Positions 4,864 to 54,756 of a DNA stretch of 64,000 nt are shown here, piece by piece. The stretch is from an uncultured Myxococcales bacterium (lineage in GTDB: Bacteria; Myxococcota_A; UBA9042; DTJE01), in contig CALJUR010000121.1 of the NCBI GenBank assembly GCA_937975765.1, forward strand, positions 92,296 to 156,295, given 5' to 3'. Position 1 is the stretch's first letter; each line of letters begins with the position of its first letter. A program made the translations under genes and the position numbers. The notes beneath the pieces are model-generated. The model saw only the letters and a list, made by a program, of their open reading frames with translations, had not been told where the DNA came from and searched no databases.

Positions 4864-6396
4864 TCACTGGACGGAGATCGGGACGGTGACCGAGATTACC
4901 TCGCCCTTGAAGCGGCGGAACGACGTCGAGCGCAACGTCGCCTCGATGCAGCCCTGGGCGCCGGCCGTGCCGGCGGCGTTGACCGACGTCACCTGGCCGG
5001 AGGGGCTGATCGTGATGCGCGGGTTCGCGCGGAACGGCAGGGCCAGGCCCGCGGTGCGGACACACCCTTGCAAAGCCGCCTGCTTCTTGCGCAGCGTCGC
5101 CTGGATCTCGACCGACGACAGGGGCGTCAGGCCCTCGTCACCGCCCGCGGCGGCGGCGGCGGCCGGCGTGCCGCCGGCCTTGGCCTCGCGGCCCTTGCTC
5201 AGCGCGGCCAACAGCGCATTGGCATCGTCGGAGGCCGGGGCCTTGGCGGCCGGGGCCGGGGCCGGGGCAGGAGCCGGCGCTGCGGCAGGGGCCGCGGGCT
5301 TCTCGGCAGGCTTCTTCGCCTGGCCGGAAGGCTCCCTCGGCTTCTCGGGTGCCTTGGCGGGGGCGGGGGCGGGCGCGGCGGTGACCGCGGGGGCCTCGGC
5401 GGCGGGGGCCGGCGACGCGGCAGGCGCGGGGGCCGGGGCAGGGACCGGCGCGGGGGCCGGGGCCGGCGCCGCGGTCGGGGCCGCGGGGACGGTCGCCGGC
5501 GGCTTCTCGCCCTCCGGGTGCGAGACCAGCAGCCCGACGGCCACGCCGATGACCGCGATGGCGGCCACGCCGGCCACGCCCAGCAGCAGGTTCCTGCGCT
5601 GCTTCTTGCGCTGGGCCAGCGCCTCCGCGACGTGCCGGATCTCCCCCTCGTCCAGGGAGATCACGCCGACGCGGGACGGGGGCGCCTTCGCCGCGGCAGG
5701 TGCGGCAGCCGGGGCCGGGGTCGCCGTGGCATCGATCGGCGCCAGCGACACGGGCGCCTCGACCGGCTGGATCGCGGGCTGGCTTCGGGTGCCCTTGCGG
5801 GACTTGTAGTCGTCCAGCGAGAACAGGACCGAAGTCTCCTTGCGCTGGAAGATCATCGGCTCGACGGGAGAGGGGGTGTGCTCGGCCGCCTCGCCGGCCT
5901 CCTCGGAAGGACGGGGCGACCCGGCCGGTTCGGCCGCCGGCTTGTTCGAGACGTCCTCGTAACTCATCAACTGCGTCGCCTCGGCGACCTCGCCGGCGGC
6001 AGTGGAAACCTGGAAATCGTCGATCTCGCCCAGGCGGGTCCAACCCGCAAACCCCTTGCGCCACGCCAGGTTGTCCGCGGTGACCTCGCCCGAGGCCAGC
6101 TTGGCCCGCACGTCATCCGGCGTGAAGGGTCCCTGGCGCTCGTTGCCGGCCGCCAGGTACCACTTGACCACTTCGACCGCGGGCGCGGCAGCGGTCGCCG
6201 CGGGAACGGGCGCCGGCGCGGACGCCTCGGCGGCAGGCTCGGCCGGGGCGACCGGGGCCGCAGGAGCCGGGGCGGCCGCGCCAACCTCGATCACGTTGCC
6301 GCAACTCTTGCACTTGACCTTGACCGAGCCCCCGGCCGGCACGCGGTTGTTCGGCAACTTGTAGGAGGCGTTGCACTTCGGGCACTGGACCTTCAT
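4864..6396 (-). CDS. MJ0042-type zinc-ribbon / GYF-like (DUF4339) / AgmX-PglI C-terminal domain membrane protein
   Basis: The N-terminus has the zinc ribbon CPKC...CKSCG. A DUF4339 segment follows (KWYLAAGNERQGPFT...NLAWRKGFAGWTRLGEI). Long Ala/Pro-rich repeats flank a single transmembrane helix. The C-terminal two-Cys domain (ALQGCVRT...AQGCIEATL...GEVISVTVPISVQ) is typical of AgmX/PglI. GGAGG lies 7 nt before the ATG. Confidence 0.7.
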   Translation of the reverse strand: MKVQCPKCNASYKLPNNRVPAGGSVKVKCKSCGNVIEVGAAAPAPAAPVAPAEPAAEASAPAPVPAATAAAPAVEVVKWYLAAGNERQGPFTPDDVRAKLASGEVTADNLAWRKGFAGWTRLGEIDDFQVSTAAGEVAEATQLMSYEDVSNKPAAEPAGSPRPSEEAGEAAEHTPSPVEPMIFQRKETSVLFSLDDYKSRKGTRSQPAIQPVEAPVSLAPIDATATPAPAAAPAAAKAPPSRVGVISLDEGEIRHVAEALAQRKKQRRNLLLGVAGVAAIAVIGVAVGLLVSHPEGEKPPATVPAAPTAAPAPAPAPVPAPAPAPAASPAPAAEAPAVTAAPAPAPAKAPEKPREPSGQAKKPAEKPAAPAAAPAPAPAPAPAAKAPASDDANALLAALSKGREAKAGGTPAAAAAAGGDEGLTPLSSVEIQATLRKKQAALQGCVRTAGLALPFRANPRITISPSGQVTSVNAAGTAGAQGCIEATLRSTSFRRFKGEVISVTVPISVQ

Positions 6397-6441: not shown

Positions 6442-8415
6442 TCATTCCCGGGCCGTAGTATAGACCAAACGCATTGCAAGCAAAGCGACGATCCCGAGGA
6501 AGAGCCATGCCGGCACGAAAGACGCTGGCAAGGCCGTCCCCTGCACGCAGCCCCCCCCGTGCCCTCCGCCGGTTTCCGGGCCCGGGTCCGCCAGCATCCC
6601 TTCATCGGCGGCCGCATCCTGGACCGGCTTCGCCTGTTCGCAGTGGAACGACCCGTTGCAGAAGTAGCCCGTCGCGCACTCCGGGCAGCGGCCGCCGCAC
6701 CCGTCGGCACCGCATCGGCCCGGCGGGCAGTAGGGGGTGCACGTGCCGGGGTCGCTCCCCGGCTCCCCGGCGTCCGGGCCGATCGCCACGTCGTCTTCCC
6801 CGGGGACCTCCTGGGCGGGCTCGTCGACCTCCGCGGGGGCATCGGGACCGGCCGTCTCCCGGACGTCCGGGTCCGTCGCGTCCGTGCCGGTCGCATCGGG
6901 CTGGACCACGTCCCCGGAGGCCTCCGGGATCGTCCCGACGCAGGTCCCCGCGCCGTCGCACGCGGTCCCCGACGGGCACTGGCCGCACAGGCTGCCGCAG
7001 CCGTCGTCGCCGCACTCGCGCCCATCGCATGCCGGCGTGCAGGGCTTCACGATGACCCCGCACTCGTTCAGCGGGCACAGCCACTCCGGGCCGTGGCAGT
7101 CCGCCGAATCCGTGCAGTCGCCGACGAACCCTCCCGCCGCGGCGACGCATGTCCCGCCCGAGCACGACCCGTCCGGCACCCACGCCGCGAACGCCCCGGC
7201 GGGAATCGCCCGGGACACGCAGTGCATCGCGCCGCCCCAGGAGATGATCTCGTCCGATACGATGCCGACGTGCGTCCAGTCCGGCATCGCCTCCTTCCAC
7301 ACGGCCGTCGCCTCGTCCTGGTACTCCGGGTAGTCCGCGTACACCGGGAACAGGTTCACGCCGTTCGCGAACGTGGAGTTCGTGTACGTCCGCCAGACGC
7401 CGTCGTTCTGGTAGGGCATCGGGATGCGGTGGACCGTCAGCCGCGACCCGTCGGCCAACACCTCTCCCTTGAGGAGGTCGGCGTTGCTGTCCAGGTCCCT
7501 CCAGGTCTGGCGCGAGGACCGGGAGTCGTCCGACTGCCCCACCACGTACACGTTCGGCGCGACGTGCTTCGAAAACATGTCGATGTGGCCGGTCCCGTCG
7601 TCCTCGGGGATCAGCACGATCAGTTTCCGGCATCCCAGGTGCACCCGGAAGACCTCCTCGACCTCGGCCTGGGTCTTGTCCGGGTTGTCATTGAAGACCA
7701 CCTGGGACGCGAAGCACGTGCCCTTGCCGTCGGTCGAGAAGTTGCCGCCCTCGAGGTACAGCGGCGCGCGGTAGGTCGTCACGCCCCACCGGTTGCCCAG
7801 CAGCGTGGGCACCGCGTCGTCGGACGGCCGATCGGGGTAGTACCGGAAGTCCGAGAACGCGACGGTCCCCGACGGTTCGACCAGCGGGAACGGCCCGAAG
7901 TCGATCATCCAGATCGAGTCGGCGGAGTACGTCAGGAAATGCACCTTCGAATCGATCGTCGCCTGGGCCACGCCGCGGCTCTTCAGGCGCTGCACGAAAT
8001 CGCTGCTGGTGGCCCGGTCCGGCACCAGCATCGTGAACTCCACCGTGTCCACGCCGTACCGGACCATGTCCAGGAGCGAGTTCCCGACGGCCTGGTACCA
8101 GGAGTCGAAGCCGGTGTACGACAGCAGGATGGTCTGCATCGGCTCCCACTCGACGAACGCCCGGAAGCCCGCCTTCGAGGGCGGCACGGTGATCGCATAC
8201 AGTTCCGGGTGCTGGGCTCGGTAGGTCGCGTCGGGGTCGGCGGCCGCCGGGGACCGGAAGGTCTTCGTCTTCCAGGCGGGCAGCATCCGGCGGGTCGTCC
8301 CGGCCGGGTTCGCTGCGGCCGGCGCCGGGCTCCCCGACGGCCCGCCACCGGGCTCGCCGCAGGCCGTCCCCAGCGCCAGGGCCACCGCGATCGCCACCCG
8401 ATGGAAGTCCCGCAC
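6442..8415 (-). CDS. surface lipoprotein of the agmatine deiminase / Porphyromonas-type peptidyl-arginine deiminase family with Myxococcus-type Cys-rich repeats and a C-terminal sorting tail
   Basis: The catalytic fold motifs are present (EWEP, TGHIDMF, and GGAMHCVS matching the AguA GGNIHC Cys nucleophile). Two CxxCx...CxDGCG..C repeats follow (CTPACDGRECGDDGCGSLCGQC and CTPYCPPGRCGADGCGGRCPEC). The tail is GGGHGGGCVQG plus a hydrophobic helix ending MRLVYTTARE. The start is taken as a GTG at 8415 (VRDFHRVAIAVALALGTAC lipobox) and is uncertain. Confidence 0.65.
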   Translation of the reverse strand: MRDFHRVAIAVALALGTACGEPGGGPSGSPAPAAANPAGTTRRMLPAWKTKTFRSPAAADPDATYRAQHPELYAITVPPSKAGFRAFVEWEPMQTILLSYTGFDSWYQAVGNSLLDMVRYGVDTVEFTMLVPDRATSSDFVQRLKSRGVAQATIDSKVHFLTYSADSIWMIDFGPFPLVEPSGTVAFSDFRYYPDRPSDDAVPTLLGNRWGVTTYRAPLYLEGGNFSTDGKGTCFASQVVFNDNPDKTQAEVEEVFRVHLGCRKLIVLIPEDDGTGHIDMFSKHVAPNVYVVGQSDDSRSSRQTWRDLDSNADLLKGEVLADGSRLTVHRIPMPYQNDGVWRTYTNSTFANGVNLFPVYADYPEYQDEATAVWKEAMPDWTHVGIVSDEIISWGGAMHCVSRAIPAGAFAAWVPDGSCSGGTCVAAAGGFVGDCTDSADCHGPEWLCPLNECGVIVKPCTPACDGRECGDDGCGSLCGQCPSGTACDGAGTCVGTIPEASGDVVQPDATGTDATDPDVRETAGPDAPAEVDEPAQEVPGEDDVAIGPDAGEPGSDPGTCTPYCPPGRCGADGCGGRCPECATGYFCNGSFHCEQAKPVQDAAADEGMLADPGPETGGGHGGGCVQGTALPASFVPAWLFLGIVALLAMRLVYTTARE

Positions 8416-8531: not shown

Positions 8532-9884
8532 TCACCGTTCGAATCCGCGGTAGACCCGGGCCCTCTTCCGGGCCTGGTTGCGCAGCAGGGGCACCTGCTG
8601 GTCCACGAAGTCCACGATGCGGCCGGCCGTCTTGCCCTCGGCGGGGCGCAGCGCGCGACCCAGGGCCTGGGTGGTCCGGGCCACGTTGCCGTTCGGGGTC
8701 GTCAGGAACACCGTGTCGATGGCCGGCAGGTCGAACCCCTCGCCGACCAGGGAGGTCGTGGCCACCAGCACGGTCACCTCGCCGCGCCGGAACCTGGCCA
8801 GCACCTCGTCGCGGGCCTCCTTCGGCAGGTCCCCGGTCATCGCGGCGACCGGCAGGCCCTCGGCTGACAGCGCCGCCGCCAGGAACCGGCAATGGTCCAC
8901 GCGGTCCGACAGCACCAGCGACCGCTCGCCGCGATGGTCCTTCACGGCGCCCACGATCAGGGCGTTGCGGCCCGGGTCCTTGACCAGCCGGTTGACCAGG
9001 CGGCCGTAGTTGTTGCGGAAGGCCCCCTTGAACGCCGTCGAGACCTCCACCACCTCCGAGGGGGCGATCGAGCCGGCCGCCACCAGGGTCTTCGGCTTGA
9101 CCGCGTGGCAGATCGGCCCGACCACGTCGAACAGCACCGGGTGCAACCGGTCCTTGCGGGTGGGCGTGGCCGACAACCCGATCCGCCAGCGGGCCGCGAA
9201 GCGCTGCACCACGGACTTGAACGTCTCGGCCGGGCAGTGGTGGCACTCGTCCAGCACCACCAGTCCGAACGCGTCCCGCAGCGCCTGCAGGTCCCTGCGC
9301 TGCAACGTCTGGACCATCGCCACCGTCACGTCGCGCCACTCGTCCTGCCCGCCGCCCACCTTCCCCGGGTCGATGCCCAGGAACGTGCGGACCCGTTCGG
9401 CCGTCTGGTCCAGCAGCACCGAGGTGTGCACCACGATCAGGGTGCGGACCCGCAACCGGGCCGCCAGCGCGCAGGCGATGACCGTCTTCCCGCTGCCGGT
9501 CGGGGCCTGGATCACCCCGTCCCGGGCCGCGACGGCTGCGGCGAACGCGGCCTCCTGGTAGTCGCGCAAGTCGCCGATGAACCCCGGCAGGTCCGCCGGC
9601 GGCGCCACGGTCCGGTCCTCGGGCGGCGGGGCGTCCGGCCCCAGCAGGCGGGCCACCAGGTCCCTCGCCCCGCGCGGCAGCAGCACCTCGCCCGGACCGG
9701 CGGCCTCGAACAGGTCCACGGTCCTGGCCAGGTGCCGGCAGGGGCGGCGGAACCGGCGGGCGTCCCAGTAGACCGGGTTTTCGTAGGTGAAGCGCTGGCG
9801 GAGTCCCTCGACCAGCGCAGCCTGCGCCGGGTCGCCGGGGTCGATCCCCTCAAGTCTCAGGCGCTCCTGGACGATGAGTCTCAC
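8532..9884 (-). CDS. superfamily-2 DEAD/DEAH (DECH) box helicase with a ~130-aa N-terminal domain of unknown function
   Basis: It has the Q motif DYQ, Walker A IQAPTGSGKT, motif II VVLDECHH, motif III SATP, motif V LVATTSLVGEGFDLP and motif VI QALGRALR. The start is taken as a GTG at 9884. Confidence 0.75.
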   Translation of the reverse strand: MRLIVQERLRLEGIDPGDPAQAALVEGLRQRFTYENPVYWDARRFRRPCRHLARTVDLFEAAGPGEVLLPRGARDLVARLLGPDAPPPEDRTVAPPADLPGFIGDLRDYQEAAFAAAVAARDGVIQAPTGSGKTVIACALAARLRVRTLIVVHTSVLLDQTAERVRTFLGIDPGKVGGGQDEWRDVTVAMVQTLQRRDLQALRDAFGLVVLDECHHCPAETFKSVVQRFAARWRIGLSATPTRKDRLHPVLFDVVGPICHAVKPKTLVAAGSIAPSEVVEVSTAFKGAFRNNYGRLVNRLVKDPGRNALIVGAVKDHRGERSLVLSDRVDHCRFLAAALSAEGLPVAAMTGDLPKEARDEVLARFRRGEVTVLVATTSLVGEGFDLPAIDTVFLTTPNGNVARTTQALGRALRPAEGKTAGRIVDFVDQQVPLLRNQARKRARVYRGFER

Positions 9885-10017
9885 GGCTGGGGTATGCCAC
9901 CGGCCGGGCCGGGCGTCAACCGCGCCCGCCCCTGCCCGGCGACGGCATCCGGGCGGGCGCGACCTTGTGCCGGATCCCTGCGTTCGATGATAGAATCGGC
10001 CGCGGGAGGCAGCGGAA

Positions 10018-10968
10018 GTGGAAAGGCGAGGCAACCAGCGATTCCCCCTTGCGATGAAGGCGTTCCCTCTCGGCGGCAGCCCCGAGTCCATGCTCGAGAC
10101 CGACAACGTGTCCTCCAGCGGCGCGTATTTCGTGGGCGATCCCGGCGTCCAGGCCGGCGCCCACGTGTGGCTGCGGCTGGAACTGGGCACGGCCCAGCGT
10201 GGCCGCGAGAGCATCTACCCGCTGTGCATGCAGGTCCACGTCGCCCGGCTGTCGCAGTCGGGGGACGGCTCGGTGGCCGGGTTCGGCGCCGAGTGGCGTG
10301 CGGCCTGGTGCCCGGATGACGCCACCCCGCTGAAGGAGTTCCTGCGCCGCACGCTGTCCCTGTCGTCCGGCTACATCCAGACCGTGCCCCCGGCGACCGC
10401 GGACGGCCGCACCTCCTTCCTGTACGTGTTCCCCGCCGGCGCCACGGCGATGCCCGTTGCGACGCCCGCCCCGGCACCCGCCGAGGTCCTGACCCCGTAC
10501 GAGGAGCAGATGGCGCTGGACGCCGCGCCGGCCCCCGCGAAGGCCCCGGCCGACCCTTCCGCCATGGTGGCGAACGGCGTGGACCTGGATGGCAAGACGC
10601 CCCTGCCCGGCGAGACCCGGTCGGGCCTCGCGGTCTACGTCGCGGTGCCGCTGACCTGGGCGCTGGACTCCGAGGAGTTCGAGGGCCGCGCCATCAAGAT
10701 GACGACGTCCGGCGTCCGCGTGGCCACGCTGGCCGACCTGCCGGGGTCGTACCGCCGCATCACGATCCGCATCCCGATCCGCCAGCGCGACCGTTCCGGA
10801 ACGCTGGCCCTGTCCGGCACCGTCGTCAACCAGCGGCCCCCGCGCGAGGAGGGGCAGGAGGCGCAGTTCGAGGTCCAGTTGACGCTGGGCAACGACCCCG
10901 AAAGCCTGCACCTGTACCGCAAGCTCCTGGACCGTCTGTCCGCGATGGCGGCCCCCGTGGGTGCCTGA
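10018..10968 (+). CDS. tandem PilZ-like domain protein
   Basis: There are two PilZ-like halves (RFPLAMKAFPLGG...DNVSSSGAYF and KMTTSGVRVATLAD...RITIRIPI). GGGAGG lies upstream of the GTG start. Confidence 0.45.
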   Translation: MERRGNQRFPLAMKAFPLGGSPESMLETDNVSSSGAYFVGDPGVQAGAHVWLRLELGTAQRGRESIYPLCMQVHVARLSQSGDGSVAGFGAEWRAAWCPDDATPLKEFLRRTLSLSSGYIQTVPPATADGRTSFLYVFPAGATAMPVATPAPAPAEVLTPYEEQMALDAAPAPAKAPADPSAMVANGVDLDGKTPLPGETRSGLAVYVAVPLTWALDSEEFEGRAIKMTTSGVRVATLADLPGSYRRITIRIPIRQRDRSGTLALSGTVVNQRPPREEGQEAQFEVQLTLGNDPESLHLYRKLLDRLSAMAAPVGA

Positions 10969-40331: not shown

Positions 40332-44480
<4,149 letters not shown>

Positions 44481-44559
44481 TGGACACCTCCGGTCAATCA
44501 CACGCATCGGCCGCCGGCGGTCGACCGGCGGTCGTCGAACACCCCTTCACGGGAACGTC

Positions 44560-48696
<4,137 letters not shown>

Positions 48697-49023
48697 CCTG
48701 GCCCTTCTCCGCTGAGAGGGATGGAGCGAACGATGTCAGCGATGCCGATCAACCGCACCGCCCTGGTTCCCCGGGTCGATCGCGTCCACGACGCGCCGGC
48801 CCGCTTGCCCTCGCCTGGGCGCCCGGCAGTGCACCGGACGCCTTCGGCGCCAGCCCCGGGTCACGGGCGTGACCCCTGGGCGCCCCCGTGGGGAGGCAGT
48901 CGACTCGGGCCGGCCCCGGATCGCTCCGGGACCGGCCCTCGTCCTCCCGAACGTGGCGCGAGCCGGAAGCCTGCATCGCGGCCGTGGGCCGGACGCGCGC
49001 TTCCGCGCACCCGCGTTTCAAGA

Positions 49024-49059
49024 AACAGGACGCCTGGGCCCGTGCGGGCCCGTGCGGCC
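49024..49059 (-). terminator. putative rplL-rpoB attenuator: tandem 10-nt repeat (GGCCCGTGCG x2 on the + strand) forming a GC hairpin followed by CCUGUUUCUU on the transcript
   Basis: A direct repeat and palindrome GGGCCC-GCAC-GGGCCC sit immediately after the rplL stop. The only U-rich run in a 360-nt GC-rich spacer follows it. The position matches the known rplL-rpoB attenuator. Confidence 0.4.
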
Positions 49060-49452
49060 CTACTTGATCTCGATCGTCGCGCCGGCGGCCTCGAGCTTCT
49101 TCTTGATGTCCTCGGCCTCGGCCTTGGACACGGCCTCCTTGACCGTCTTCGGCGCGGACTCGACCAGTTCCTTCGCCTCGCGCAGGCCCAGGCTGGACAC
49201 GATGCCGCGGATCTCCTTGATGACCGCGACGCGCTTGTCGGCCGCGACGTCCTTCAGGATGACGTCGAACTCGGTCTTCTCCTCGACCGGGGCCGCCGCC
49301 TCGGCCGGGGCCGCCGCCGCAACCGCCATCGCGACCGGCGCCGCCGCCGTCACGCCCCACGCCGCCTCGAGCTCCTTGGTCAGCTCGGACAGTTCCAGGA
49401 CCGTCAGCCCGCTCAGATACGCCTTGACCTGCTCCCGAGTGATCTCCGCCAT
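49060..49452 (-). CDS. rplL: 50S ribosomal protein L7/L12
   Basis: The product reads [34 protein letters not shown]...[12 protein letters not shown]. Confidence 0.95.
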
Positions 49453-49514
49453 CTTCTTCGCTCCTTGTGTGTTGTTCCCGCGTCAGGCAGGAACCAGCCC
49501 CGCAGGGCCGTACC

Positions 49515-50042
49515 TTACGCCGCCTGCTCCGACAACTGCCGCTCGCGAGCCGCCAGGACGCCCACGAAATCCCGTGCCGGCGCCTGCAGGACGCCGAGGA
49601 ACTTCTTGGGCACGCCGACCAGCGCGCCGAGCAGCATCCCCTTGAGGACGTCCGCCGAGGGGAGGGCCGCCAGCGCCTTCAGCTGCGCCTCTCCCATCGG
49701 GCTGGTCCCCAGGCTGCCGCCCACCACCTGAACCTTGGCCACGCCCTTCAGGAGCGTGGTCAACGCCTTCGCGAACGCCGCCGGGTCCTCGTTGGTGTAT
49801 GCCACCGTCAGGGGACCCTTCAGCGAATCCGCGAAGAAGGCCCAAGGCGTCCCTTCCACAGCACGCGCGAACATGGTGTTCTTGATCACGCGGAAATGGC
49901 CGCCTTCCTTGCGGAGGGCACGCCGCATCGACGTGTTCGTCTCCATGTTCAGCCCGTTCTGGGCCAGGAGCACCATGGCCTTGGCGGAGTTGAGGATGTC
50001 CGACAACTCCGCGACCGCCGCCTTCTTCTGCTCCAGGTTCAT
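49515..50042 (-). CDS. rplJ: 50S ribosomal protein L10
   Basis: The product reads [31 protein letters not shown]... and is full length. Confidence 0.95.
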
Positions 50043-50267
50043 CGTCTCATCTCCAATCGCGAGACTCCCGGGCCAGCGGCTGCCCTCAGGCAGGGGGAGG
50101 GGGACAACACACGTACGTGCTTCCCGAATCCACCGCCTCCGCCGGTCCTACCCGCCCCCTGCCGGGAGCGGCGCCGACTTCTCGGGCAGCTCGAACACAA
50201 CCCCGTCCGGCGCCTTCGCATCGCGCCGCGCGGGGATCGGAACCAGGTTCTCAACGGAACACGGGCC
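50043..50267 (-). promoter_or_regulatory. rplJ leader region (expected L10(L12)4 autoregulatory leader)
   Basis: A 225-nt untranslated spacer lies between rplA and rplJ. This is the conserved position of the L10 leader. No motif was verified. Confidence 0.35.
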
Positions 50268-50975
50268 TCACTTCGAGGCCTTCAGCGCCACTTCCACGTC
50301 CGACGGGTCGATCCGGATGCCGGGGCCCATCGTGCAGGACATCGTCACGCTCTTCACGTACGTGCCCTTGACCGTGGACGGCTTCAGCTTCAGCAGCGTC
50401 TCGGCGATCGCCAGGAAGTTGTCCTTCAACTGCTGCGGCGTGAAGGACCTGCGGCCGATCGTCGTGTGGATGATGCCGTTCTTGTCGACGCGGAACTCGA
50501 CCTTGCCGGCCTTCGACTCGCGGACGGCGCGACCGACGTCCATCGTGACCGTGCCGACCTTCGGGTTCGGCATCAGGCCGCGGGTGCCCAGCAGCTTGCC
50601 CAGCTTGCCGACCAGGCCCATCATGTCGGGCGTCGCGATCGCCTTGTCGAACTCGAACCATCCGGTCTTGATCTTCTCGGCCAGGTCCTCGGCGCCCACG
50701 AAGTCGGCGCCGGCGTCCTGGGCCTCCTTGGCCTTGTCGGCCTTGGCGAAGACCAGCACGCGGGTGACCTTGCCGGTACCGGCCGGCATGACGCACGCGC
50801 CGCGGACCATCTGGTCGGCGTGCTTGGGGTTGACGCCCAGCCGCACCGCGATGTCCACCGACTCGTCGAACTTGGCGAAACCGGTCTTGCCGACCAGGTT
50901 CACCGCCTCCTCGATCGTGATCTTCTTCTCGCGATCGACCAGGCCCAGGGCCGCCTTGAACTTCTTGTCAGGCAT
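50268..50975 (-). CDS. rplA: 50S ribosomal protein L1
   Basis: The product reads [28 protein letters not shown]... and is full length. Confidence 0.95.
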
Positions 50976-51016
50976 CCTATGTGCTCCTCGCCTCCCTCAG
51001 GCAGGCCGCATGGTGG

Positions 51017-51442
51017 CTAATCCACCACCTCGATGCCCATGGAACGGGCCGTGCCAGCCACGGTCCGCATGGCGCCTTCGAGGTCCACGGCGTAGAGGTC
51101 CGGCATCTTCACCTGCGCGATCTTCGCCACCTGCTCCTTCGTGATCTTCCCGACCTTGTCGCGGCCGGGAGCCGTGGAGCCCTTCTCCAGGCCGGCCGCC
51201 TTGCGGACCTGCTCGGAGACGGGGGCCGTCTTGGTGACGAAGGTGAACGAACGGTCCGAGAAGACCGTGATCACGACCGGGACGGTGGAGTCGCCCAGGG
51301 AGGCCGTTCGGGCGTTGAACGCCTTGCAGAACTCCATGATGTTCGCGCCGGCCTGGCCCAGCGCCGGTCCGACCGGGGGCTGGGGCGACGCCTTGCCCGC
51401 CTTGATGTGCAGCTTGATCTGACCGACGATCTTCTTTCCCAT
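51017..51442 (-). CDS. rplK: 50S ribosomal protein L11
   Basis: The product reads [32 protein letters not shown]... Confidence 0.95.
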
Positions 51443-51454
51443 GGTGGCTCTCTC

Positions 51455-51991
51455 CTAGACCCGCTCGACCTGGTTGAAGTCCAATTCGACCGGAGTAGCG
51501 CGACCGAAGATGGTGACCAGGACGCGGACCTTCCGCTTCTCGGCCTTGACCTCCTCGATGATCCCCGAGAAGTTCACGAACGGCCCGTCCTTGATCCGGA
51601 CCGCCATCCCCTCCTCGAACTGCACCTCGGCCACGGGCCGGACCTGCCCCTGCTCCATCTGGTGCCGGATCTGGTCGACTTCCTTCTCGGACAGCGGCCG
51701 CGGGCCGCGATCGTTCCCCACGAATCCCGTCACGTTCGGACGGTGACGGATGAAGTGGTGCGTCTCGTCGTTCAGGTCCATCTGGACCAGGATGTAGCCC
51801 GGGAAGAACTTCCGACGGCCGCCGGGGCGCTTCTTCTCGCCTTCCGCGGGCGGGGGCTCCATCGGGACGATGATCTCCCCGATGTGCTCGAACACGGTCG
51901 GACCCTCGCGCTTCATCTGGTCAAGGATGTCGGCCTTGACCTTCTGCTCGAAGCCCGAATAGGTGTGGACCACGAACCACTTCATCGGCAT
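51455..51991 (-). CDS. nusG: transcription termination/antitermination factor NusG
   Basis: It has the NGN domain (WFVVHTYSGFEQKV) and a KOW motif (VRIKDGPFVNFSGIIEEV). Confidence 0.95.
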   Translation of the reverse strand: MPMKWFVVHTYSGFEQKVKADILDQMKREGPTVFEHIGEIIVPMEPPPAEGEKKRPGGRRKFFPGYILVQMDLNDETHHFIRHRPNVTGFVGNDRGPRPLSEKEVDQIRHQMEQGQVRPVAEVQFEEGMAVRIKDGPFVNFSGIIEEVKAEKRKVRVLVTIFGRATPVELDFNQVERV

Positions 51992-52004
51992 GTCCGACTC
52001 GGCC

Positions 52005-52382
52005 TCACAGGCGGTAGATGACGCTGGTCAACGCACCGATGACCGCGTCGAACAGGCCCAGGATCGCCGAGACCACGACCGTCGTCACGATGACGACGAT
52101 GGTGGAGACGCGCGTCTCAGGCCACGTGGGCCAGGTCACGTTGCGCAACTCGCTCGCGACCTCCAGGCCGAACTTGTTGATCGGCTCCGAGAACCACAGG
52201 TACAGCACCGATCCGACACCGACCAGCAGGCCCAGCAGGTCGCTGACCGCGAACCGCACGCCCAGCAGGGGCCGGTTCAGGTTCGGATTGATCCAGTCGA
52301 TCACGGTGCCGAAGAAGGCCGCCACCAGGACCCACACCAGGATCCCGATCACCATGAACGAGAGGCGAACGTATTTGTCCAA
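52005..52382 (-). CDS. secE: preprotein translocase subunit SecE (three-transmembrane long form)
   Basis: It has three hydrophobic helices and the conserved C-terminal ELRNVTWPTW...V amphipathic helix and transmembrane segment. It sits in the canonical tRNA-Trp-secE-nusG context. Confidence 0.85.
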   Translation of the reverse strand: MDKYVRLSFMVIGILVWVLVAAFFGTVIDWINPNLNRPLLGVRFAVSDLLGLLVGVGSVLYLWFSEPINKFGLEVASELRNVTWPTWPETRVSTIVVIVTTVVVSAILGLFDAVIGALTSVIYRL

Positions 52383-52429
52383 CGGGGCCCCCTCGTCAAA
52401 TCACCGGTCGTCCGTCGACCGGCCTCACT

Positions 52430-52505
52430 GGCAGGGCAGGAGGGATTCGAACCCCCAACCCGCGGTTTTGGAGACCGCTGCTCTACCGTTAGAGCTACTG
52501 CCCTG
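52430..52505 (-). tRNA. trnW: tRNA-Trp (anticodon CCA), 3' CCA encoded
   Basis: It forms a cloverleaf: acceptor AGGGCAG/CTGCCCT, anticodon loop CTCCAAA, T-arm GGGGGTTCGAATCCCTC. Confidence 0.85.
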
Positions 52506-52564
52506 TCGAGGCCCGCCCGTTCCCGGGCCGGCCCCGCAATGCCGGCAGCCCGCCACCCCAGGGA

Positions 52565-52747
52565 CTACTTCACTTCCTTGAAGGTGGTGTGCTTGCGCTC
52601 GAACTTGCAGTACTTCTTGATCTCCAGCCGGGCGGTCGTGGTCTTCTTGTTCTTCTCGGTCGCGTAGCGCGCCACGCCCGGGAGACCGCTCTTGCGGCAC
52701 GACTGGCATTCCAGCTGGATGTTGACCCGGTTTTCCTTCTTCGCCAT
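52565..52747 (-). CDS. rpmG: 50S ribosomal protein L33
   Basis: The product reads MAKKENRVNIQLECQSCRKSG...KYCKFERKHTTFKEVK. Confidence 0.9.
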   Translation of the reverse strand: MAKKENRVNIQLECQSCRKSGLPGVARYATEKNKKTTTARLEIKKYCKFERKHTTFKEVK

Positions 52748-52814
52748 CGTTCGTCTCCCGGGGCCCGCGACGCCCTCGCGGTCGCCGCGGACTGCCCGTC
52801 AGGTCAAGAACACG

Positions 52815-54008
<1,194 letters not shown>

Positions 54009-54088
54009 GACCCTTCCTCCTCAGGTTTCCGTCCCAACCAACACGACCGGCCTCTCCGGTCGCCTGACCGGAACCGGGCCTGCTCACC

Positions 54089-54163
54089 GGAGCCTTCGAT
54101 CGGAATCGAACCGATGACCCCGTCCTTACCAAGGACGTGCTCTGCCGACTGAGCTACGAAGGC
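54089..54163 (-). tRNA. tRNA-Thr (anticodon GGT); CCA not fully encoded
   Basis: Acceptor GCCTTCG/CGAAGGC, anticodon loop TTGGTAA, T-loop GGTTCGATTCC. Confidence 0.8.
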
Positions 54164-54188
54164 CTAACTCACGCCCGGCCCTTGCGCA

Positions 54189-54263
54189 GGAGCGGGAAAC
54201 GGGATTCGAACCCGCGACGTCGAGCTTGGAAGGCTCGCGCTCTACCAACTGAGCTATTCCCGC
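54189..54263 (-). tRNA. tRNA-Gly (anticodon TCC)
   Basis: Acceptor GCGGGAA/TTCCCGC, anticodon loop CTTCCAA, T-loop GGTTCGAATCC. Confidence 0.8.
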
Positions 54264-54346
54264 CCGAGTACGGACCCGTCCTTCCCAGGACCGAGTACCG
54301 TGAAATTCAAAGAACCGCGAACCCAGGCACCGCGACAACCGTTCAG

Positions 54347-54429
54347 TGGAGGGGGGAGGATTCGAACCTCCGAAGCCTACTGGCGGCAGATTTACAGTCT
54401 GATCCCTTTGACCACTCGGGAACCCCTCC
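54347..54429 (-). tRNA. tRNA-Tyr (anticodon GTA) with a long variable arm
   Basis: Acceptor GGAGGGG/CCCCTCC, anticodon loop CTGTAAA, long variable stem CGCCAGTAGGCTTCGG. Confidence 0.8.
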
Positions 54430-54456
54430 GCGCCGAAAACGCGCGCCCTCGGCGGG

Positions 54457-54529
54457 AGCTGGCGACGGGAATCGAACCCACAACCGCCTGATTACAAATC
54501 AGGTGCTCTGCCGATTGAGCTACGCCAGC
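54457..54529 (-). tRNA. tRNA-Thr (anticodon TGT)
   Basis: Acceptor GCTGGCG/CGCCAGC, anticodon loop TTTGTAA, T-loop GGTTCGATTCC. Confidence 0.8.
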
Positions 54530-54756
54530 CTGCAAAGAACCAGCCCCTTCAAAGGGCGATTGATTATGGTGGACGAGGGCGATCCTGTCAATCGCTTTTT
54601 TCGTCCGGGCGGCCAGGCCGCGGACGGGGAGGATGCGTCAGAACCGCGCCGTTGTCAAGCCCTGTCTTGCGGCCGGGCGCCTGCCTTTCCCCCGCCGCCT
54701 TGGTACCCGTCCGCCGCGTCGTGTAGACTGGGGCCGTCCCGAAAGAGGAGGGCGCC

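Follow-up and report, generated by a model that had tools for sequence, protein, structure and literature searches.

A predicted exported deiminase of family PF04371 with cysteine-rich modules and a putative MYXO-CTERM-derived tail in uncultured Myxococcota

According to a 2024 paper, PPAD, the peptidylarginine deiminase (PAD) of Porphyromonas gingivalis (PDB 4YT9 and 5AK7), is the only bacterial PAD to have been described at the species level (PMC11121387). Its residues Trp127, Asp130, Arg154, His236, Asp238, Asn297, and Cys351 have been shown to bind or turn over the substrate, the free carboxylate of which is bound by Arg154 and also by Arg152, the more important carboxylate ligand as judged by mutagenesis (PMC4893104). 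The agmatine deiminases AguA/AIH (NCBIfam TIGR03380; PDB 2JER, 6NIB, and 3H7K) recognize a different guanidino compound: two flexible regions of AIH close a tunnel on agmatine and recognize its terminal amine (PMC6447857). A third group of described proteins, those sorted by the MYXO-CTERM/myxosortase route (TraA and the "myxosortase-dependent" M36 peptidase and phytase-like families), present a functional head, a Cys-rich stalk, and a C-terminal signal composed of a Cys-containing motif, an uncharged transmembrane helix, and a terminus rich in Arg (PMC11980579; Haft preprint), with canonical helices having neither charged nor proline residues (Haft preprint). Here, we describe a gene from a 64-kb window (the whole stretch of 64,000 nucleotides [nt] that was analyzed, on contig CALJUR010000121.1 of an uncultured Myxococcales bacterium), the product of which resembles all three. 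It belongs to the same Pfam family as PPAD and bears features of myxobacterial surface sorting; both parts are of known kinds, and what is new is that a PF04371 enzyme is joined to such features.

The catalytic domain matches the Pfam family PAD_porph (PF04371) with 153 bits against a gathering cutoff of 25 (E = 1.5e-44) and spans profile positions 4 to 321 of 321, in agreement with the original prediction, which had placed the protein in the agmatine/peptidylarginine deiminase family from its letters and translation. The motif GGAMHCVS and the other hallmarks of guanidino-modifying enzymes recognized at that stage also hold: the catalytic Asp/His/Asp/Asn/Cys set is complete, with W169, D172, R196, H277, D279, N346, and C399 aligning with PPAD Trp127, Asp130, Arg154, His236, Asp238, Asn297, and Cys351, respectively, and the key residues are invariant across a family alignment of 37 members. 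An AlphaFold (AF2) model built from this 37-sequence alignment has a predicted local distance difference test score (pLDDT) of >90 for residues ~60 to 450. When it was compared with the PDB by Foldseek, the matches were 1xkn (2.5e-27), PPAD (1.3e-25), and AguA/AIH structures (1e-24 to 1e-21), with target template-modeling scores of 0.67 to 0.83 against 1xkn, PPAD, AguA, and AIH; the modeled structure sits firmly among the pentein deiminases.

The long Cys-rich stalk and tail recall adhesin-like surface proteins such as TraA, and one might picture a protein of binding or adhesion that has lost its activity and retains only the deiminase fold. Nothing specific speaks for such a protein, and it is most improbable given that the catalytic residues, like the substrate-stacking Trp, are all intact and do not vary among 37 homologs; we rejected the pseudoenzyme reading because every catalytic residue is in place. 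The protein is instead probably a catalytically competent enzyme, a Cys-hydrolase among the guanidino-group deiminases of PF04371, and acts outside the cytoplasm. It would carry out the reaction R-guanidine + H2O -> R-ureido + NH3, and in this respect its chemistry is ordinary, with nothing unusual about it.

As to the substrate, the only NCBIfam matches are to the AguA equivalog TIGR03380 (95.1 bits versus a cutoff of 381.8) and to NF010070 (89 bits versus 483), and since the TIGR03380 score is far under its cutoff, the deiminase is not an AguA ortholog. In a sequence search of the PDB, PPAD was the best match (E = 1e-21), followed by 1xkn (2e-19), 6nib (2e-14), and the deposited agmatine deiminases (3e-12 or weaker). 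Because an unrooted tree of Myxococcota, PPAD-like, and AguA sequences cannot tell which pair is closer, we compared shared insertions and deletions and used no tree. The alignments consisted of the window core, members of its clade, Bacteroidota relatives bearing a type IX secretion system (T9SS) domain, the PPAD segment, and three annotated aguA genes (L083 to L085) from plasmids, where they lie in typical agmatine operons; these plasmid genes took the place of a 78-amino-acid (aa) AIH fragment, which recovered short fragments only when used as a query. Loop A (FNAWGG..GLY.PW) has 13 residues in AguA and 3 in the window protein, the rest of its clade, and PPAD, and all of these lack a gate-keeping insertion of ~25 residues that precedes the Y-x-N motif of AguA. 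The two deleted loops correspond to the AIH regions that close on agmatine, and the entrance to the active site is of the open PPAD type. Furthermore, the alignment at the end of loop A has a Trp in AguA, Arg154 in PPAD, and R196 in the window protein, this Arg being invariant in the clade. We treat the deiminase as a third PF04371 lineage with a PPAD-type open entrance, and its substrates are more likely to be extracellular Arg with a free carboxylate (an Arg that ends a peptide, or free L-arginine) than intracellular agmatine.

Several observations weigh against so close a link to PPAD. At 26.8%, overall identity to PPAD does not exceed that to AguA (23 to 27%), which shares the fold and the catalytic residues, and the Foldseek scores of the two overlap and do not discriminate between them. 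The position of PPAD Arg152 is occupied by Pro194, and PPAD Tyr233 and Ile234 are replaced by Gly and Thr, although R191 (within FRYY), which lies near Pro194 and is near-invariant in the clade, might stand in for Arg152. The motifs LEGG, DGxGTC, and DDGTGHID fit AIH (6nib) and AguA slightly better than PPAD. These motifs, the last in the general form (D/E)DxTGH(I/V)D, and the missing Arg152 would suit an exported agmatine deiminase that turns environmental or periplasmic agmatine into N-carbamoylputrescine and so serves to scavenge polyamines or nitrogen, as would the acidic residues E271 and D273, which align with AIH D218 and D220 near the agmatine site, the fact that TIGR03380 and NF010070 are the sole NCBIfam matches, and the name "agmatine deiminase family protein" that database sources give to homologs. 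We nevertheless rate such an enzyme, though a serious contender, as rather unlikely: the score of 95 bits against 381.8 is not that of an equivalog, the protein lacks both lid loops with which AguA/AIH shut the tunnel and sense the terminal amine, and an Arg stands where AguA has a Trp. Nor did a search for agmatine-pathway genes among the neighbors find any, there being no aguB, ptcA, carbamate kinase, or antiporter gene nearby, unlike at the aguA loci L083 to L085; bona fide aguA loci carry permease, carbamate kinase, or carbamoyltransferase genes. To our knowledge, the characterized AguA enzymes are all cytoplasmic, which also counts against an agmatine deiminase here, the window protein being predicted to be exported.

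Export is predicted from several sequence features. The N-terminus, VRDFHRVAIAVALALGTAC, conforms to a PROSITE PS51257-type lipobox rule (basic n-region, uncharged h-region, then [LIVMFWSTAG]2-[LIVMFYSTAGCQ]-[AGS]-C), with R2 and R6 followed by AIAVALA-LGTA-C19. The strict form of the rule is satisfied by 29 of 53 family proteins, several near-misses have a Cys at this place, and a Cys ends the hydrophobic region in most complete homologs. Beyond the signal, residues 20 to 57 are modeled with pLDDT <50, and the consensus of the MLPAWK... segment is conserved across the clade. The mature part contains 26 Cys residues, namely, two in the catalytic core, the nucleophile, 6 + 8 + 8 in three modules, and one in the tail, a number and layout that give the pattern of an oxidized, extracytoplasmic protein. 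The lipobox, common to most homologs, and the even set of 22 Cys in the three modules support export, and the extracytoplasmic location proposed earlier is borne out to that extent; the protein may also be lipidated and exposed at the surface.

In the mechanism that we propose, the MYXO-CTERM part of which is modeled after PMC11980579, the protein would be exported by Sec by means of its lipoprotein-type signal peptide, and the 22 Cys of the three modules would form disulfides. The catalytic head, at the N-terminal end, would be carried on a stalk consisting of the 6-Cys module, the two 8-Cys repeats, and acidic linkers, with the C-terminus kept in the membrane by a Cys-containing tail of MYXO-CTERM descent. 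Such an arrangement would resemble that of PPAD, which is likewise exported and held on the outside of its Gram-negative cell through a sorting element at the C-terminus, although the Ig (immunoglobulin)-like domain and T9SS C-terminal domain of PPAD are absent from the window protein (no PF18962), which has in their stead the 6-Cys module, 8-Cys repeats, lipobox, and MYXO-CTERM-derived tail. The Bacteroidota relatives P0050 and P0053 keep the NRPRP motif and the T9SS C-terminal domain, and PF18962 is found in P0050, P0053, and P0054. One feature sits uneasily with the proposal: an N-terminal and a C-terminal lipid anchor on the same protein are without explanation.

The two Cys residues of the catalytic core other than the nucleophile, C234 and C262 (GTC... 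and LGC...; nt ~7630 to 7716), recur in most of the exported-clade members that were sampled; the three bona fide AguA sequences do not conserve them, and PPAD is without them. They may form an extra disulfide within the catalytic domain.

The C-terminal tail had been likened in the original prediction to a MYXO-CTERM-type sorting signal, and this comparison stands for the GGGHGGGC motif, which a predicted helix follows, and for the position of the tail, which is homologous to that of matching tails in relatives. Cys623 of the GGGC motif lies 34 residues before the C-terminus, and when 56 tails are aligned, no column except that of this Cys is invariant. The MYXO-CTERM model TIGR03901 matches 40 of these 56 homolog tails (E ≤ 0.01). 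P0005, P0047, and P0028 score at or above its cutoff of 20 bits, and the tail of the syntenic ortholog L006, with GGGGC, a hydrophobic stretch, and RRR, looks canonical by eye. From the model-matching tails and L006, the window tail is most likely a derived (degenerate) MYXO-CTERM signal.

What does not carry over from the comparison is the match to the model and the Arg cluster, and these, with other features, weigh against a working signal. TIGR03901 does not match the whole protein, its C-terminal 249 aa, or the 54-aa or 56-aa tail, and GC_trans_RRR is likewise unmatched, including by the isolated tail. The protein ends in RLVYTTARE, which has two separated Arg residues and a terminal Glu in place of an Arg cluster; P630 and P635 lie near the start of the hydrophobic stretch, and in the 64-kb window, which is a part of the genome only, no myxosortase and no second MYXO-CTERM-like tail could be seen. 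The helix gives a mixed picture, with residues 628 to 648 uncharged, as in the canonical signal, but R649 inside the predicted helix. The window protein further differs from described MYXO-CTERM proteins in having a lipobox at its N-terminus, while most of its homologs share with them tails that match the model.

It is possible, if somewhat doubtful, that the tail is no longer a sorting signal but a plain membrane anchor or a relic, with the enzyme residing at the inner membrane or in the periplasm, or held by the N-terminal lipid only, and not displayed on the surface. The unmatched models, the lack of the Arg-rich cluster (one of the three parts by which the signal is defined), and the prolines in the hydrophobic stretch, unlike anything in canonical MYXO-CTERM helices, all speak for this, and the lipobox could anchor the protein by itself. 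So does the conservation of the YTTAR ending in the nearest orthologs, which indicates that it is under a constraint of its own. On the other hand, all 56 tails have the Cys of the Gly-rich motif just ahead of the helix, orthologs and paralogs mostly have model-matching tails, and the short TIGR03901 model is noted by Haft to lose sensitivity in some lineages, all of which speaks against this reading.

The ending itself takes the form (L/F/M)VY(T/N)T(A/R)R, often as a terminal ...VYTTARE, and is conserved in the nearest orthologs (window positions 6445 to 6462). L003 and L004 have the same YTTARE as the window protein (at ~10029 and ~10116), a further site lies in L007 (~1751), and the ending also occurs in P0004, P0014, and P0021. 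In a regular-expression scan of ~1 Mb of related loci, it was found on deiminase orthologs only. A profile search with eight YTTAR/YNTRR tails tells nothing about the ending in other protein families, as it returned one 56-aa fragment and missed the very tails that seeded it. Six homologs (L051, L053, L057, L063, L071, and L072) end differently, in ...GCSC[AS]F[IV][DE] or similar, where the Cys motif is followed by neither a hydrophobic helix nor an Arg cluster, and these endings may represent a shortened or different C-terminal signal.

Between the catalytic domain and the tail lie three Cys-rich modules. The first, with six Cys residues, is specific to the clade and follows the catalytic domain, at the position of the Ig-like domain of PPAD; its consensus, DGxCxxGxCxxxxGGYxGxCxxxxxCxGPAWxCxxNxC, holds clade-wide, and residues 400 to 450 have pLDDT values of 93 to 97, so that the module is modeled confidently as a unit with the core. 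The other two are 8-Cys repeats that share the spacing C-x3-C-x4-CGxDGCGxxCxxC-x5-C-x5-C. Two Cys-rich units had been foreseen and are indeed present with identical spacing, but their identification as Myxococcus Cys-rich repeats has to be given up: TIGR02232 gave no match to the whole protein or, in an NCBIfam search at E ≤ 10, to its C-terminal part or the isolated repeats, a search in which this model had no positive control (one was sought, but the sequence examined contained no DUF4215-type repeat). The model is also unmatched in homologs with ~10 or more copies of the repeat. In this, the stalk differs from that of TraA, for which TIGR02232 repeats are reported.

The repeat unit of the family, C-x3-C-x4-CGxDGCGGxCGxC-x5-C-x5-C, occurs in 147 copies in ~58 retrieved proteins, with up to 16 copies per homolog; carriers among the homologs include P0005, P0018, P0056 to P0058, and L017, and the repeat extends to nondeiminase proteins, such as P0056, where it accompanies a TIG domain. 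Like the PF04371 match, this recurrence shows that the features are no accident of sequence. No Pfam or NCBIfam model covers it, either singly or in arrays (tried with homologs of >10 copies), and a profile search of the PDB with the repeat yielded nothing meaningful. AlphaFold gave a single repeat, modeled from a 41-sequence alignment, a mean pLDDT of 64.6, too low for a fold search. If the Cys-rich stalk of TraA is a guide, the repeats probably serve as a rigid spacer.

Stalks elsewhere in the family contain further elements. A second, larger Cys-rich module (CGxITYEGCCDGxxLKYCExxxLxxxDC...CGW...YDCG..G.DPSGxxPxxC) comes after the 6-Cys module and ahead of the 8-Cys repeats in many homologs, namely, P0002, P0005 to P0013, and P0016 to P0023; the window protein is without it, and it had no Pfam match in the proteins scanned. 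Somatomedin-B-like domains (PF01033) are present in the stalks of some homologs (P0024, P0027, P0029, and P0035), and P0024 has a weak dockerin-like C-terminus in place of the MYXO-CTERM tail.

The deiminase belongs to a large uncharacterized clade. With each GTDB species represented by a single genome, a scan yielded 310 relatives, and the best 80 of these all come from uncultured metagenome-assembled genomes (MAGs), nearly all labeled Myxococcota, Myxococcales, or Deltaproteobacteria, with a few other labels, as befits the Myxococcota origin surmised from the sequence; the nearest relative among these 80 is 56% identical. HMMER, run against all 1.84 billion representatives (of clusters at 50% identity), returned 465 clusters at E ≤ 1e-30. 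We found no description of the clade in the literature, and no curated NCBIfam model names it, among the MYXO-CTERM-sorted families or otherwise. Several genomes have two or three deiminase paralogs (CAZVFX01, with L026, L027, and L029; JABWCM01; BTVJ01; JACKFB01; and JAWKRR01), and the stalks of paralogs differ in length, from 0 to 16 repeats. In P0150 (1,527 aa), the catalytic-domain query matches six separate stretches, which may reflect multiple deiminase domains or a fragmented alignment.

Taken as a whole, the clade pairs a PPAD-like open active site with predicted export and a surface-sorting tail. Tentatively, and with considerable reserve, uncultured and probably predatory Myxococcota may possess a large, often multicopy family of PPAD-type enzymes of the envelope or surface that citrullinate the C-terminal Arg of prey or self peptides and proteins after cleavage by secreted proteases (compare gingipain for PPAD), so that bacterial protein citrullination would be an environmental trait not confined to Porphyromonas; in that case, the window protein would represent a sublineage in which MYXO-CTERM has changed to ...VYTTARE, possibly with altered sorting. 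If peptide Arg is the substrate, extracellular citrullination would extend to predators of soil, freshwater, and marine habitats, and the clade would offer tractable nonpathogen models of PPAD-type specificity. If the enzymes are exported agmatine or arginine deiminases, they are merely nutrient-scavenging enzymes. The stalk repeat and the variant tail amount to minor annotation gaps.

The features of the gene are collected in Table 1.

Table 1. Coordinates of the deiminase gene and its features within the 64-kb window
Feature	Residues	Window positions	Strand	Remarks
Whole gene, predicted exported PF04371-family deiminase		6442..8415	-	657 codons plus stop (6442-6444); GTG start at 8415
Predicted signal peptide with lipobox (...ALALGTA-C19)	1-19	8359..8415	-	PS51257-type rule
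N-terminal linker (Gly/Pro/Ala-rich, 20-~45) and clade-conserved segment MLPAWK...YRAQHPELYAITVPP	20-87	8155..8358	-	
Catalytic pentein domain, Pfam PAD_porph	88-405	7201..8154	-	W169, D172, R196, H277, D279, N346, C399
Nucleophile motif GGAMHCVS	394-401	7213..7236	-	Cys399
Clade-specific 6-Cys module	417-452	7060..7167	-	After catalytic domain, at position of PPAD Ig-like domain
8-Cys repeat 1, CTPACDGRECGDDGCGSLCGQCPSGTACDGAGTC	459-492	6940..7041	-	Regular expression
Acidic Pro-rich linker	493-558	6742..6939	-	Predicted disordered; pLDDT <50 for 497-567
8-Cys repeat 2, CTPYCPPGRCGADGCGGRCPECATGYFCNGSFHC	559-592	6640..6741	-	Regular expression
C-terminal tail	616-657	6445..6570	-	GGGHGGGC (616-623), uncharged 628-648, predicted helix 636-656, RLVYTTARE

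The reading frame and GTG start given in the original prediction agree with the 657-aa translation and with P0001, an identical database protein that was called independently, from the same start, on metagenome contigs. GC contents at the first, second, and third codon positions of the gene are 0.65, 0.54, and 0.93, respectively, and the third-position value (GC3) of 0.93 downstream of the GTG at 8415 compares with 0.71 across the 114 nt upstream. This shift, a GAGG ~7 to 10 nt 5′ of the GTG, the end of the upstream helicase gene at 8532, and the gene call of P0001 together make the GTG at 8415 the likely start. A long mechanical open reading frame that reaches 9339 was rejected as the gene because it overlaps the helicase gene.

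Upstream lies the gene for this DEAD/ResIII helicase (8532 to 10214, minus strand) and downstream that for a Zn-ribbon + GYF_2 + Pro/Ala-rich membrane protein (4864 to 6396, minus strand), and the neighbors further include genes for an outer membrane protein-like protein and an amidohydrolase; they offer no functional clue. The order helicase, deiminase, Zn-ribbon/GYF protein is kept in five related MAG loci (L003 to L007), and with 45 nt from the deiminase stop to the next ATG, cotranscription is possible. A scan for promoters and terminators around the deiminase gene found none.

The rest of the window is made up of housekeeping genes (rpoBC, ribosomal proteins, tuf, tRNAs, and suf). Within a block at 40332 to 54530, where gene names were assigned from the size and order of open reading frames, rpoC occupies 40332 to 44546, rpoB 44560 to 48735, and a likely tuf 52815 to 54020, accompanied by five tRNAs (Trp, Thr, Gly, Tyr, and Thr) and by reading frames that are sized and placed like ribosomal-protein genes. 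The GC content of this block is 0.66 to 0.68, versus 0.70 to 0.75 elsewhere in the window.

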